A DNA stretch of 30,358 nt from Pedosphaera sp. (GCA_031414955.1 JANOQV010000039.1:1-30358), one strand, 5' to 3'; positions 15,001 through 21,000 are shown, counted from the stretch's first letter. A program made the numbers.

Positions 15001-18000
15001 GCATCCGGCGCAACCGTCCGGCAACGCCTCCGCGCAGCAGGGCGCCGACCTTTTGAAGCTCATCGAGTATCGCCAGCGCAAGAGCGAGCCGGGCAAGTTC
15101 GCCTTCGTGCAGATGCCGCACATCCATCAGGGCTACAACAACTGCGGCTCCACCGCCTGCGCCACCTTCGCCCGCTTTCAGGGCGGCAAGATCGGCGGCT
15201 GGGATTTCAAAAAACTCTGCCCGTCTCCCCTCGGCACCGGCACCGACTGGGGCCACCTGCTCGATGCCGCGAAAAAAATCGGCCTGCAGTGGAAGCTCAT
15301 CACCTTCACGCCGGACGACGCGGGCTTCGACCAAGCCACCGCCTTTCTGAAAAGCGAACTCGATGCCGGCCGGCCCGTCGTCGTGGATTTCAAATACATC
15401 GGCCCGCAATACCCCGGTGGCAGCGCCGGCCACACGCTCAGCGTCTGCGGCTACCTCGCGGCGGAGAACCTCTACATCCTCTGCAATCCCGCCGTCGCCA
15501 CCCCCGGCCTCCAGCTCATCACCGCCGCCGACCTCCAGAACTTCTGGCGCTCCGATCACTACGGCGCACTCTCGAAGGGCGTGCTCTCCCGGCCCGCCTT
15601 CGTCATTGAAAATCCGTGATGCCTCAACTCAGATCGTTGCCAGCAAACAAACCACCACGCCACCAGTCCCGCGCCTGCGGGACCAGCGGCAGCGAACTCG
15701 GCCCCGGCGCGACAAAGAAAATTCCGGGCGTTGGTTTTAAACGCTCCTGACCGCCGCTCATCAAGATGGGTGCCGCGGTGAAGGCGCAAATTGATGCCTT
15801 CTTTGGCCACTGTCCCTGACGCAATGCAAAACAGTGCGGAGAGAGCGGTGGAGCATTTTCCATCTTGCAAGATGGAGTTAAATCTACCCGCCGAAGATCC
15901 GGTGCGGGCAGCACTACGGCACACGCAGAATTTCCGGGCGGAGGCGGCCGACGAATTGGCCCGGCAGGCGTGAATCAAGCGAGTCAGGCGCGGGTGATTC
16001 AGCGGACACATGGCCGTCGCAAAAGATCACGTTGGCTTTTCGCCCGTGCCGGAAGTGAGCGGTGGCTTCGGTGGTGTTTGTGCTGATGTAGTAAAATTCC
16101 TCGAGCATCGGGTTCGAGGGCGACGCGGGCGGTTGGAAGGTGTTCACCTGTGCGGCATCCGCGAAGAGCACCGTCTCGGAGGGATGCGTCACGCTGGAAA
16201 TGCGGATGGGAGGACGATTGAGCGGCACGGAGAGGTGCAGGTTGTAGCCGTAGCCGTAGGCAGCCCCGCGCACTTTGAGTTTGAATTGCGCCTGCGAGTA
16301 ATTCAGCGACGGGCAAATTTCCACGCCGCGTCCCTGAAGGTAAGGGTAGAGCGCGCCTTGGGTGGCGTCGAAGGCGCGTTCTCCCTCGGCACCGTTTTCC
16401 AGCCAGCCAAACCAATAGGTTTTTCCGCTGGCGTCGTAGCCGTTGAGCCAGCGGAAGCATTGGTCCTCATGGTCGTCCCAATACATCTGCGCGGCGAGAC
16501 CGAGTTGGCGAAGGTTGTTCGTGCATTGGGCACGCTGCGCGGCGGTCTTCGCACGACCGAGGGCGGGCAGGAGCAACGCCGCGAGCACGGAGAGGATGGC
16601 GATGACGACGAGCAGTTCGATCAAGGTGAAGGCCCGGCGTTTCATGCGTGGCTCGCGAGCGAAGGCTTGGGATAGGGGCAATGACGACAGTTGTTCTCGC
16701 AACAGTAGCCACGCCGCCGGTGATAGCTGGCGGTGAAGACCACCAGGCCGGCGTCGAAATAGAAATCGCCGGGAAGAATTCTCTGCGCGGCGGTGCTGTT
16801 CGCTTTGGCGCGGTGGAATCGCATCACGCAGTCGCGGCAGATGCAGGTTCTGTTTCGCAATTCCGTCGGCACTTGAACGAGCAACGCCTCCGGGATTTCC
16901 ACCCGGGCACACCAGCACGGGCCTTTGTAGGGGTCGGGCGTGCAGAGCTGGCAGTCGTTCGCTTGGCCGCAGAGCGGGCAGGAGATGGCTTCAGGCGGGT
17001 TCATTTTGCCGATGGCGCAACTTCGGGTCGGTCGTGCCGGTCGCGGTGGAGCAATCGATTTGGACATACGCCTCCGCCGGGCCGCGCCACGCGAAGAGTT
17101 CGGGATGCAGCAAGTGCGCGAGGAGTGCCGTGCCGTCCACGACGCGTGGGCCGGGGCGATTGAAGTAGCCGCCGTCCACGGCGAAGACTTGGTTCTGCTG
17201 CACGGCGGGAAGTTCCGTCCAACCCGGTTGGTTCATGAGCCAGCCCGCTTGAGCTTGGGCCTCACGGGTCGCAAATCCGCAGGGCATGAGGATGAGAATC
17301 TCCGGTTCCGCCTCGCGCACCGACTCCCAACTCACGCGCACGGAGTCGGCCCACTTGCGGCCGAGCCGGTCCGTGCCGCCAGCGATCTCGACCATCTCCG
17401 GCACCCAATGTCCGGCGCAGAAAAGCGGGTCCATCCATTCGGCGCAGAACACTCGCGGACGGCGTGTTGTTTGCGCCACTCGCTCCGCAACATTTCGCAG
17501 CCGGTCTTGCCCGGCGGCGATGAGGCATTCGGCTTCGGTCGCGCGCCCGGTCGCCCGGCCGAGTGCGCGGAGGTCGCCCTCGATCTCCGCGATGGAGTGC
17601 GGCGACATCCAAAGCACTTGCGGCTGGTGCGGCAGGGCTTTCAGAGCACGGCTGACTTCGTTGCCCGCCGGGGCGCAGACCTGACAGAGATCCTGGGTGA
17701 GAATATGAGTGGGCGCGAGTTCGCGCAGGAGTTGTTCATCCACATGGTAGAGGCTTTCGCCGCGTCTCAGCGATTCGCTCACGGCGCGGTCAATCTCGCT
17801 GAGGCTGAGGTCGCTCACGGGAATGTTGCCGTGAACGACGAGCGGCTTGCCGCGAATTTCCGGCGGGAAATCGCAGCAGTGCGTGAGGCCCAGCAATTGA
17901 TCTCCGAGGCCCAGCGCGCAGGCCATCTCCGTCGCCGAAGGCAATAGAGAGACGAGGCGCAATTCGCCAGTCGCGGGAGTGGAACTCATGGCGTTCAGGC

Positions 18001-21000
18001 GGTGACGGGAACAAGGCGCGGCTCGCGCAACGACATGAACCGGCGTTGGGCCAGCGCCAGCCCGCCGAACAACCCGCTGGCGTAGAACAGGTCGCCGAGC
18101 AGGCCGTTGCGAAAGTAGGGCAGGCCGGCGACATAACATTCCAGCAGGCCGGCGGCATTCATGGGGTAGGTATCGAGGCAGGCCCACACGCTGAAGTTCG
18201 TCACGAGAAAGAACACGACGGAGCTGATCAGCGACGCGAGCGCAACGCGGCCCGCGCCGGGCCGGCGACGCAGCCAGAAGCCGAGGCACACGGTCAGCGC
18301 GAAGCAGCCATAGACAAACGGCATGAGCCGGTGGAGTCCGAGCACGAGGTCACCAAGGAACAGCGCCGCCAACGGCAGCACGAAGGCCGCGCGTTTACTG
18401 GCGAACTGCGCCCCGCCAAACAGGGCCATCGCGCCGATGGGGGTGAAGTTCCACGGATGGGGCAGCAGCCGCGCGACAGCGGCGGCGAGAATCATTCCGA
18501 CAAGGACGAGGTAACGCTGTTTGTTCATGGTGTTTTCTTTCGTTGTGGTCTGGTCAGTTTTGGTTTTCCGCCGCCGCTGGTTGTGGGCAGCAAATCTGCG
18601 AAATGAAAGGGGCCGCGTGACACGATCTCGCCCACGCAGCAGGCCACGGGCTGCCGAAAAATCGGCCCGGCGTGGACGAAGGTGTGGAACTCGCCGTTCT
18701 CGCCGCACGGGTCAACGTGCGCGGGCAGGCTGGCCAGCAGGCCCTCGTCGTAGGTGCGACCGGCGAACGAGGCGGCGAGCTTCCGCCCATGCACGCACAC
18801 GAGCGTGGCGCGGAAACCGGCGCGGATGAATTCGCGGGCCAGTTGGGTCGTGTCGAGTCCCCACAAGGGGTAGAGCGCGGTCATGCCGACCTCGGCGAGC
18901 ATCCGGTCGCGATAGGCGCGGATGTCCGCAAGGAACAAATCGCCGAAGGCCACTTTGGTGATGCCCGCCGCCTTGAATTCGAGGCAGGCCGCGCGCATGA
19001 GCCGTTCGTAATCTTCGTTGGCGCACTGCTGCGGGATGAACACTTTCCGACAGGGAATCCCGAGCGCCTCGGCCTGACGGTTCAGCAACGAACAGCGCAC
19101 GCCGTGCATGCTCACGCGGCGAAATCCCTCGGTGCAAGTGGTCAGCAGCGCCGTCACCTCGTGCCGGCCCTCGGCGAGAATTTTACGGAGCGTCAGCGAC
19201 GAGTCCTTGCCGCCGCTCCACCCCAGAACGATGCGTTCGCGGGCCATGTCAGTCGGCGCGTGAAGCGTTGATGCGGTAGAAGCGCGCGTTGAAAGCGGCA
19301 GCGTTGGTGTCTTGCAACACTACCTGGCCGCCCGTGCCCGCGCGCGTGCTACTGGCTTCACTCCATGAGTGAAAATTTGTCGTGGCTTGCAGGACGTAGT
19401 TCCAATTCGTGCGGCTGAGGAATGTCTGCTGCCAGTGATCGCCCACTGCGGCGAATTGCTCGTGCTGGATGGGCGGCGGCGGGAAGGTGACGGTGAGGTT
19501 GTCAATCACGCCGTGCGCCAGGATGGAACCGGCATACGGACCCGGTGCCAGGCCGAGGTCGCTGTAGCTGCTGATGGCGAAGGTATCCACCTTGAACTGA
19601 GTGAACGGCCTGCCGAAGCCGGAGCTGTTCGTCGCGAGGCGCGCGGAAGTCACCGGGCCGACGAGCACGCCGTTGGTCTTGATGGAAGTCAGGACCGTTT
19701 GATTACTCGACGTGTAGGCCAGGACAATGCGCATCGTGACCCCCGTGGGCAGGTCAAACAGGCTGAAGTCGCCGCTGCCGTTGTAGTTCATTCCGGAGTT
19801 GGTGGAATAAACGGCGGGCCAGACGGTCGGGCCGAAACCGGTATCCGGGAAGAAATTGAACTCGACCAGGTTCGGCGAGTTCCGGCCCGTGCCGCGATTG
19901 AATGTGGTTGATTGGGCGTCGTCGCGATTTTGGAAACCGAAGGCCAGTTGCATCGGGCCGGGCTTGCCCGGATTGATTCCGCCAACGATGTCGTGGAGCC
20001 GAAGGTCCAGCTCGGCGCGGAAGTCGTCGTTCCGGGCCATGATCGTGCCCAGCGGCAAATGCAGATAGCTGTTGCTGCGCGAGGAATCCCAGGTGACTTC
20101 GAGATTCTGATTCGTGGAGTTCCAGCGTAACAAGCCCGCGTCGCCGAAGAGCTTCCAACCTTGAGCCAGCGGGTGGCTGGAAAAATTTTGAGTGACCGTC
20201 AGCACGCCGGACCCACTGTCCCCGACGGGGTCAGCGAATTGAGCGAGCGACAGATTGGGAACGAGGATTACGCTGGCCAGAGCCAGCGCCGGCAAACAAT
20301 TTTTCCGCATGGTCTAATGGTCTTTCATCATGTCCTGCCGCAGAACGGCGGGACGGGTTGGCGATTGAGAGACCAGGACGGAATCTGAAAACGAAAAAGC
20401 CTTCAGACCCCGACAAACGGAGAATGAAGGCTAGAAATTCAACGAACCCCGCGAAGACAGTTCGCGGGCTGGCCTCATCCTTCTCTTTGACGGAGAAGTT
20501 GGCTCCGCAAAAGCGGAGCCATGACGAGCGCAATCAAACCGGTATCCTGACTTTGGGCTTCGAACCTCGCTCCCTCCTTCCCAGCGTGTGGCTGGTGGCC
20601 TTGGGAGTTTGTAACCCGTTACAGTGGCGCAACCGTCCCCGATTCTCACGGGGTTCCCTGACATTTGATGGCTAAACTAACAGCGGCCGATGGCCGCGTG
20701 TTTCAAAGAACTGCCGCTGTGTAGAACCGCGCGGCTCACATAGCAAGTGAGAAGTCCCGGACAGCGATGTCCCTTGATGAAGAAGGCAACATCCGGTGCC
20801 TGGTCGAAAAGTTTCTCCAGCAACGAAACGTCCACCGGGGCCGGGGCTTTTGGTTCCGACGCAATGGGGCGCTTCGTTGTGCGTGTTTTCACTTCGGAGC
20901 GGGATTTTAATCCAAGACGGCGGAGGAGACGACACGCTAGATTCAACGGATGAAAACCACCCGTCGGCCCGTGGCCACAAAGCGGTTGTCCGCCTCGGCC

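Follow-up and report, generated by a model that had tools for sequence, protein, structure and literature searches.

A cobalamin riboswitch operon of Pedosphaera sp. suggests a possible pilus-type uptake and re-amidation of corrinoids

Why would a bacterium encode a relative of the diphthine-ammonia ligase Dph6 in a vitamin B12-regulated operon, when to our knowledge diphthamide is absent from bacteria? The question is raised by gene g00661 of Pedosphaera sp., which we analyzed together with its surroundings in a stretch of 30,358 nucleotides (GCA_031414955.1, JANOQV010000039.1:1-30358), termed the window. An Rfam covariance search of the window yielded a single match, a cobalamin riboswitch covering the full model (RF00174; 20520-20683, minus strand; E = 3.5e-13, 61.7 bits compared to a gathering threshold of 31.5). 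It ends 210 nt before g00662, the first of five ORFs on the same strand, which are separated by 1, -4, 5 and -77 nt. If g00658 starts at a later ATG at position 17004, the last overlap shrinks from 77 to 14 nt. A sixth gene, encoding a prepilin-type protein, overlaps g00658 by 4 nt. The initial annotation of a five-gene B12 riboswitch operon is thus confirmed with regard to the riboswitch and the tight spacing, but it was one gene short, lacking the prepilin gene at 15914-16645. No promoter-like sites were found for the operon, and terminator-like sites are not in excess (10, compared to 6.3 +/- 2.5 in shuffled sequence). Based on the riboswitch and the tight gene spacing it is nearly certain that the six genes form a corrinoid acquisition operon.

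The product of g00661 (18525-19247, minus strand) is a PP-loop ATP pyrophosphatase that matches PF01902 with 110 bits and has both an intact PP-loop (WSGGKD) and H48. Like Dph6 (PF0828, PDB 3RJZ/3RK1), it contains an SGGKD loop and belongs, as judged by sequence, to the same two-domain fold family (E = 1e-18). Unlike Dph6, however, it carries a His at the position of E188, and it scores 81.7 bits with the NCBIfam model Dph6_archaeal (TIGR03679), whose cut-off is 197.3. These two features rule out a Dph6 orthologue and agree with the earlier view that g00661 is a mere relative. The His is part of the sequence DPCGENGEFH188, which corresponds to the motif ENGE[FY]H188 that replaces EGGE/DxE188 in the DUF71-B12 subfamily. 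H188 is invariant across 89 aligned rows; of 150 representatives, 137 contain E-x-GE-x-H and 92 the narrower ENGE[FY]H. Since E188, which is thought to be catalytic in Dph6, is a His in the whole subfamily, the chemistry of these proteins may differ.

Both the ENGEFH signature and the riboswitch operon support the link of g00661 to B12 that had been made initially. However, neither this link nor a bacterial role for the family is new, since a prediction from 2012 assigned the DUF71-B12 subfamily of COG2102/PF01902 to B12 salvage, with a hydrolase role similar to that of CbiZ (de Crecy-Lagard et al., PMC3541065). According to the accessible sections of that paper, 18 of 102 members adjoin cbiB, the subfamily is anti-correlated with CbiZ in bacteria, and E188 is changed to His. 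The same sections include a comment by the reviewer Aravind that PP-loop relatives are amide ligases, for which hydrolysis would be the reverse reaction. The subfamily as described there shares with g00661 the ENGEFH188 motif, the PP-loop, H48, the clustering with B12 uptake genes and a patchy spread across phyla; the proposed hydrolase is tied to CbiB, whereas CbiB, CobS and CobU are missing here. Riboswitches, DUF6580, a BtuF-fold protein lacking a signal peptide, CWC/DUF5522 proteins and re-amidation are not discussed in these sections.

Within the order, eight of 11 further genomes also have a B12 riboswitch 5' of the DUF71 gene, and two of the three exceptions lie near contig ends. Across phyla it is present at 24 of the 80 loci of the closest g00661 relatives, about ten of which are related acidobacterial-type loci; at the other 56 none was found in the DNA fetched. 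The subfamily clusters with B12 transport genes, and most stand-alone copies have unrelated neighbours. Recurrent neighbours at the 80 loci are BtuB-like receptors (19) and FecCD (17), an adenosyltransferase, CobQ, a B12 radical-SAM gene and, in three loci, a gene that we take to be the B12 mutase IcmF. Among 40 long homologues, five are fused to Cys-rich partners and eight to GNAT domains, the latter an observation for which we have no explanation.

Which organisms carry such a gene? In the Pedosphaera genome, which is 95.9% complete, B12-binding proteins are present, but CbiB, CobS and CobU were not found, and no CobQ scores over the cut-off. The same pattern prevails in 50 genomes that encode a close DUF71-B12 relative. 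All 50 have a B12-binding domain, yet CbiB occurs in three, CobS in five (in four of them without CbiB) and CobQ in one. The only genome with both CbiB and CobS is that of an archaeon (G331), which lacks CobQ. The sole CobQ gene, in a genome without CbiB and CobS, lies between BtuB and DUF71 genes behind a riboswitch.

It is likely that g00661 acts on a corrinoid carboxylate. Since the published alternative needs genes that are missing, the most plausible chemistry would be an ATP-driven re-amidation of intact cobamides, with ammonia and at a peripheral side chain; we give it slightly less than an even chance. The proposed reaction, ATP-dependent amidation of a corrin side-chain carboxylate, has a precedent in the cobyric acid synthase CobQ/CbiP, whose gene adjoins DUF71 in the case mentioned above. 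That enzyme, however, has an unrelated fold, depends on glutamine and uses biosynthetic precursors as substrates. At three of 11 loci of the order the same operon encodes a second, divergent DUF71 protein, as would be expected if separate side chains need separate enzymes.

Alternatively, g00661 might adenylate the carboxylate and join it not to ammonia but to another nucleophile, which could be a thiol, a partner protein (for example g00659) or, at the f side chain, aminopropanol. The replacement of Glu by His188, the lack of a glutaminase in the operon and the Cys-rich and GNAT fusions would all fit, and the four genomes that have CobS without CbiB would benefit from a conversion of cobyric acid to cobinamide. 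We nevertheless consider it unlikely: in most archaea no glutaminase is fused to Dph6 either, which functions nonetheless, and CobS is absent in 45 of the 50 genomes, where cobinamide would be a dead end. Still less probable is a non-corrinoid substrate, used either in a B12-independent bypass upon B12 scarcity or in a general carboxylate-amidating repair. Such bypasses, namely metE and nrdAB, are switched on when B12 is scarce; one riboswitch in the order precedes an nrdAB-like pair (read by eye), and the 56 loci without riboswitch and the mostly unrelated neighbours point in the same direction. However, the recurrent neighbours listed above handle corrinoids, and all 50 genomes tested encode B12-binding proteins. 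Finally, despite the published correlations, the E188H change and the archaeon with CbiB and CobS, a replacement of CbiZ, in which g00661 would cut pseudo-B12 or cobinamide to cobyric acid for rebuilding, is very unlikely, since in the absence of CbiB plus CobS cleavage would destroy the vitamin here and in 49 of the 50 other genomes, and since g00661 keeps an intact ATP-binding PP-loop, which hydrolysis does not require.

How would the substrate of re-amidation enter the cytoplasm? The gene next to g00661, g00660 (17995-18528, minus strand), encodes a DUF6580 protein (200 bits in Pfam) with a six-helix ECF S-component fold. In a fold search the best match is BtuM (Z = 14.5, rmsd 2.9 over 158 residues) and ranks 2-15 are all ECF S-components, where helical bundles can reach a Z of about 13 by their arrangement alone. 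Foldseek gave no match at E <= 0.001, sequence and profile searches against the PDB gave nothing at E <= 10, and the ESM Atlas contained unnamed clusters only. DUF6580 resembles BtuM of Thiobacillus denitrificans (PMC6072759; PDB 8OVV, 8C7P) in its six-helix S-component fold, its B12 context and a genome in which EcfT (PF02361) was not found. It differs in having 13-18% identity to BtuM and a probably cytoplasmic BtuF-fold partner, and it lacks the invariant cobalt-ligating Cys, as no Cys is invariant in 111 rows. The best Cys column is occupied in 97 of the 111 rows and in none of 14 distant rows; the loop that connects helices 3 and 4 carries His66 in 74 of the 111. DUF6580 often lies beside a full BtuFCD, and the 18 kb around the second copy in the Pedosphaera genome contain no riboswitch. 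The fold and the best match to BtuM support the membrane carrier proposed initially, and DUF6580 here likely carries a corrinoid, as suggested by the fold comparison. The family was not entirely without a function, as had been stated, since NCBI labels it 'putative transport protein'.

The protein g00659 (16991-17989, minus strand) has the class III binding-protein fold (PF01497, 64 bits) and matches the NCBIfam BtuF model (E = 1.3e-10) as well as profiles of BtuF structures (E = 2e-24 to 2e-13). Ahead of its first strand there are 10 residues and no signal peptide, which argues against the periplasmic BtuF that had been envisaged. Likewise, seven of 120 homologues did not match the motif sought, and 102 of the remaining 113 have at most 12 residues in this position. 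The protein contains conserved H-x-C-D and TQxxCxVC motifs. The operon encodes no BtuCD partner, and elsewhere in the genome there are two weak partial FecCD matches (42 and 32 bits). Judged from its sequence, g00659 is probably a cytoplasmic corrinoid carrier. It is followed by g00658 (16642-17067, likely start 17004, minus strand), whose Pfam domains, Cys_rich_CWC and DUF5522, are elsewhere fused to g00661- or g00659-type proteins.

This enzyme block is an insert within an order-wide operon consisting of the riboswitch, secreted BtuH-fold and lectin-fold proteins and an H-X9-DG prepilin. The product of g00662 (19249-20310, minus strand) is a secreted protein of an order-restricted family found in 79 of 121 genomes of the order; it matches no Pfam family and gave only weak leads in the ESM Atlas. 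Its legume-lectin fold is derived from a relative, P0272, that is 79% identical. Toxin domains appear only among many lectin-fold matches, at ranks 20 and below, and a toxin reading was rejected. The closest relatives carry an N-terminal BtuH-fold domain (Z = 14.6 and 14.2, 22-25% identity in P0272), which g00662 has lost. A BtuH-like gene (51% identity) is instead found at the second riboswitch of the genome, on contig C132; its link to BtuH comes from the fold search, as phmmer against the PDB gave nothing useful. Fold and regulation together suggest that the BtuH-fold domain of the order is a putative B12 binder. The arrangement resembles the BtuB-BtuG-BtuH surface capture loci of Bacteroides (PMC8941943; PDB 7BIZ, 8BLW) in having a secreted BtuH-fold domain in B12 riboswitch operons of non-producers. 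In contrast to these, it has no BtuB and a prepilin in its place, and the BtuH domain is encoded on C132 and not by g00662.

The prepilin-type H-X9-DG/DUF1559 protein (15914-16645, minus strand) matches PF07963, PF07596 and TIGR02532 over their cut-offs, in line with an N-terminal methylation motif and a DUF1559 segment. TIGR04294 scores 15.4 against a cut-off of 19 bits, and the C-terminal H-X9-DG motif is visible in the sequence. Orthologues occur in 76 of the 121 genomes, 62 of which have them behind a B12 riboswitch. The module is found in 80 genomes, a riboswitch-led BtuB in 21 and both in none (Fisher P = 1.6e-12; 4e-10 without the five seed genomes), a P-value that is overstated because most of the genomes are MAGs and related genomes do not count as independent. 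In 13 of 15 further genomes with riboswitches, a second prepilin clade lies behind BtuH-like genes. A second prepilin orthologue of the Pedosphaera genome is located at the end of contig C173, which no exact overlap joins to C132. A complex prediction of a BtuH/lectin protein with the prepilin (G424) scored 0.00 ('no answer') and is no evidence either way.

We consider it rather probable that the prepilin module replaces BtuB. It is conceivable, if distinctly less probable, that the module does no more than bind B12, or raise its concentration, on the cell surface or in the periplasm while entry occurs through another TonB receptor or a porin, the exclusion of BtuB reflecting gene swapping behind a single riboswitch. 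Most genomes of the order indeed have one riboswitch, six TonB-receptor matches exist in the Pedosphaera genome and A6 matches of lower significance (E of 1e-79 or above) in many module genomes, and 25 of 40 planctomycete riboswitch loci have neither a prepilin nor a TonB receptor. Yet the slot is filled by two distinct prepilin clades, 35 residues are invariant across 23 orthologues, and the prepilin stays behind the riboswitch where the lectin gene has been relocated (G408, G389, G436). Moreover, no weaker TonB match lies behind a riboswitch except for an interrupted one in G403 (read by eye).

Replacement of BtuB and re-amidation can be joined into one explanation, the best we have and to which we give an even chance: a two-layer, B12-repressed operon of a host that uses cobamides but cannot make or rebuild them. 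It builds on sequence, gene order, folds and gene distributions, from which we infer every ligand and reaction. In the outer layer, conserved in the order, the secreted lectin-fold and BtuH-fold proteins and the dedicated prepilin would capture a cobamide, which would cross the envelope without BtuB, probably by way of a pilus or pseudopilus linked to a secretin. In the inner layer, the mobile insert, the solitary S-component DUF6580 would take the corrinoid across the inner membrane and hand it to g00659 in the cytoplasm. There g00661 would restore hydrolysed vitamin by adenylating a free carboxylate on a side chain of the intact cobamide and amidating it with ammonia. More tentatively, BtuB-less PVC bacteria may combine pilus-type B12 import, with a dedicated H-X9-DG prepilin and BtuH-fold proteins as the receptor, with a mobile cytoplasmic re-amidation module of a solitary S-component, a signal-less BtuF-fold carrier, Cys-rich proteins and one or two DUF71 proteins.

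Our literature searches, which covered mainly papers outside subscription, retrieved nothing on DUF6580, on DUF1559 with cobalamin, on cofactor repair by re-amidation, on a TonB-independent vitamin route or on deamidated cobamides being common in nature; nothing relevant, by title and start of abstract, on riboswitches with prepilins; and, on cobamides, riboswitches and Dph6, only PMC3541065 besides papers on other topics. For most carriers of DUF71-B12, the gene distributions eliminate the role proposed in 2012. If re-amidation is true, microbes would mend damaged B12 rather than discard it, and more of the cobamides in soils and waters would become usable. The mutual exclusion of BtuB and the single-copy prepilin points to a TonB receptor-independent uptake of the vitamin across the outer membrane and provides a named ligand to test for the H-X9-DG proteins of PVC bacteria, which form a large family without a function. 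Finally, at two planctomycete loci a prepilin occupies the slot of BtuB and is followed by DUF71-DUF6580.

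A cobalamin riboswitch (RF00174, 61.7 bits; 20520-20683, minus strand) heads the operon, as the initial annotation had stated, and its 3' end lies 210 nt ahead of g00662. The gene labels also agree with the Pfam and NCBIfam assignments. Five genes indeed follow the riboswitch, but a sixth ORF, a prepilin-type H-X9-DG/DUF1559 gene (15914-16645), had been omitted; the gaps between the six ORFs measure 1, -4, 5, -77 and -4 nt. The GC content of the operon genes (0.61-0.66) resembles that of the genome (0.62). Convergent with the operon lies a gene for a Sel1-repeat protein with a fused C39-like peptidase domain (14354-15619). 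Moreover, a short ORF (20950-21204) repeats the start of a SASA-type esterase gene (22772-24016), of which it looks like a partial duplication, and is truncated at the beginning of a phytoene-dehydrogenase-like FAD gene (21113-22762).

The observation itself is thereby confirmed; the interpretation attached to it is supported in part. The link between g00661 and B12 was already known, since DUF71-B12 was described in 2012 and g00661 carries its ENGEFH/His188 signature. According to the excerpted text of that study, COG2102 divides into Dph6 and DUF71-B12, the latter is defined by the motif ENGEF/YH188, its genes adjoin B12 transporters (75/102) or cbiB (18/102), and its proposed role is that of a CbiZ-like pseudo-B12 amidohydrolase (PMC3541065). 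The motif of g00661 is DPCGENGEFH. Its His188 is shared by all 89 aligned relatives, and 137 of 150 representatives also have it; by sequence, g00661 is assigned to this subfamily. A literature search found no experimental follow-up to the 2012 proposal, and likewise no report of re-amidation, an S-component fold of DUF6580, a cytoplasmic BtuF-fold module or a prepilin-for-BtuB exchange. What is added here are the CbiB/CobS count, the signal-less carrier with its fusion network, the pairing of DUF71 paralogues and the count of BtuB exclusion across the order. A divergent second DUF71 type (WTGGKD, FLAHP, EGEYH) occurs at three fetched loci (L124:3973-4806, L125:5678-6481 and L128:7414-8307); it scores 118-133 bits on the archaeal Dph6 model, above the first type, and one of these proteins has a CWC fusion.

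CbiZ-type cleavage yields cobyric acid, and rebuilding the cobamide then requires CbiB and CobS. Neither of these, nor CobU, was found in the source genome (95.9% complete, 5.8% contamination), which also has no CobQ match above the cut-off and three B12-binding proteins above it. The B12-binding domain is present in all of 50 genomes picked for long contigs from the 80 with the closest g00661 relatives (mostly MAGs without completeness figures), but CbiB in only 3, CobS in 5, both in 1 and CobQ in 1. This pattern says that the DUF71-B12 enzyme works in organisms using finished cobamides. Since the PP-loop of g00661 is intact and a finished cobamide offers a free carboxylate only after hydrolysis of an amide, re-amidation with ATP and ammonia is the simplest fit, and we give it slightly less than an even chance that g00661 re-amidates hydrolysed cobamide. 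The default PP-loop chemistry, well documented for Dph6 and further amide ligases of this type, is carboxylate adenylation followed by amide formation (PMC3541065, excerpted text).

Two hints agree with re-amidation. The lone CobQ of the 50 genomes lies behind a riboswitch, flanked by a BtuB-like gene and DUF71, and its genome has neither CbiB nor CobS; and in 3 of 11 loci of the Limisphaerales a second, strongly divergent DUF71 within the same operon forms a paralogue pair. The side chains acted on by CobB and CobQ are taken as general background. The riboswitch-BtuB-CobQ-DUF71 operon is acidobacterial (L040:2164-7669). Against re-amidation, the change from Glu188 to His may alter the chemistry, GNAT fusions occur in 8 of 40 long DUF71 homologues scanned, the riboswitch model finds a riboswitch at only 24 of the 80 closest DUF71 loci (some with short flanks), and the genes next to stand-alone copies are of mixed kinds. 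The GNAT acetyltransferase domain is fused at either end of DUF71-B12 (P0124, P0127, P0147, P0148, P0156, P0203, P0217, P0231). One neighbour cluster is presumably GatB. In Chryseobacterium (L081, L099, L106), a large B12-dependent mutase gene, which we take to be IcmF-like, stands two genes ahead of DUF71, with no transporter or riboswitch within the stretch.

g00659, annotated as a BtuF-like binding protein, does have the BtuF fold, but it starts only 10 residues ahead of the first strand and belongs to a class distinct from the BtuF proteins with a signal that BtuFCD operons encode. At most 12 residues precede this strand in 102 of 113 homologues, TQxxCxVC is kept in 118 of 120, and at 8 of 80 loci a member of the class is no more than one gene away from DUF71. 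Of 40 long DUF71 homologues, 5 carry a fused CWC domain (one slightly below the cut-off). In the g00659 class, 7 of 120 proteins have a CWC fusion and 2 of 120 a DUF5522 fusion. We take DUF71, the g00659 class and CWC/DUF5522 to form a single cytoplasmic module, where g00659 would hold the corrinoid.

The AlphaFold model of g00660 (DUF6580; pLDDT 88, six main helices) best matches BtuM in VIA-align (Z 14.5, rmsd 2.9 over 158 residues), followed by ECF S-components at ranks 2-15; BtuM also ranks first in Foldseek (TM 0.67), but with E 0.13. No EcfT was found in the source genome, and BtuM hosts likewise lack it, according to the excerpted text of PMC6072759. The invariant Cys of BtuM has no counterpart in DUF6580, which is therefore not filed as BtuM, though its model predicts that it acts in the BtuM manner. 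As caveats, a full BtuFCD stands beside DUF6580 in 10 loci, and no riboswitch was found in 18 kb around the second DUF6580 of the source genome. This distant copy (G000:C217:25623-26138; L030 10612-11232) lies amid housekeeping genes and represents the commoner subtype in the phylum. DUF6580 is present in 24 of 301 phylum genomes and at 14 of 80 DUF71 loci.

Only 12 of the order's 121 genomes have DUF71, six together with the module (the g00662 family or prepilin) and six together with BtuB. Its copies from the order appear at several positions in a tree that leaves out two loci lacking the N-terminal motif or too short. Thus, the enzyme block is an insert in an order-wide riboswitch operon. 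Relatives of g00662 are found in 79/121 genomes; a sample of 300 other genomes of the phylum has none. The prepilin orthologue is present in 76/121 genomes, 75 of them shared with g00662, and in 62 of the 76 a riboswitch precedes it by less than 6 kb. The model of P0272, 79% identical to g00662, combines a legume-lectin fold with an extra N-terminal domain matching BtuH (8BLW, Z 14.6; 7BIZ, Z 14.2; 22-25% identity), a proven B12-binding domain (PMC8941943, excerpted text). This BtuH-like domain is present in 13 of the 20 closest g00662 relatives and 27 of 119 overall; g00662 itself has lost it. The source genome has a second cobalamin riboswitch, which leads a BtuH-like secreted protein and a g00662 paralogue (43% identity), at G000:C132:54563-56789 (L029 6576-8790); the contig ends directly afterwards. 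A second prepilin orthologue at the end of C173 (57484-58002) may continue this locus.

A BtuB-like profile (threshold E<=1e-109; next matches 1e-79, a clear gap) recovers 21 of the 121 genomes, each gene, as read by eye, directly behind a riboswitch. The module is present in 0/21 of these versus 80/100 other genomes; the exclusion holds without the five BtuB genomes that seeded the profile. Related genomes are not independent of one another. Twenty genomes have neither, 16 of them with a riboswitch. In 13 of 15 such loci examined, the riboswitch is accompanied by BtuH-like genes and a prepilin of a second clade, while the other two run into contig edges; in the sixteenth genome the TonB receptor is interrupted. 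In 5 of the 13, CWC or CWC plus DUF5522 comes next after the second prepilin, without DUF71. Secretins are present in the source genome. At the head of the prepilin clade II operons (L159-L173) stands a family of secreted W-x-G-x-G proteins, often with a BtuH-like fusion. A gene pair behind one riboswitch of the order is presumably nrdAB-like.

In planctomycetes, 40 riboswitch loci were compared: a prepilin is present at 6 and a TonB receptor at 9, the two never occur together, and 25 loci show neither. Because prepilins are plentiful in these phyla (20 motifs in the source genome), this count alone is modest evidence. Two of these loci hold, in this order, a riboswitch, prepilin, small gene, DUF71 and DUF6580. 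Many planctomycete riboswitches (L181, L189, L192, L196, L199, L209, L213, L216) lead secreted proteins of 400-500 aa that match neither TonB receptors nor prepilins and, judged by eye, are possibly beta-propellers.
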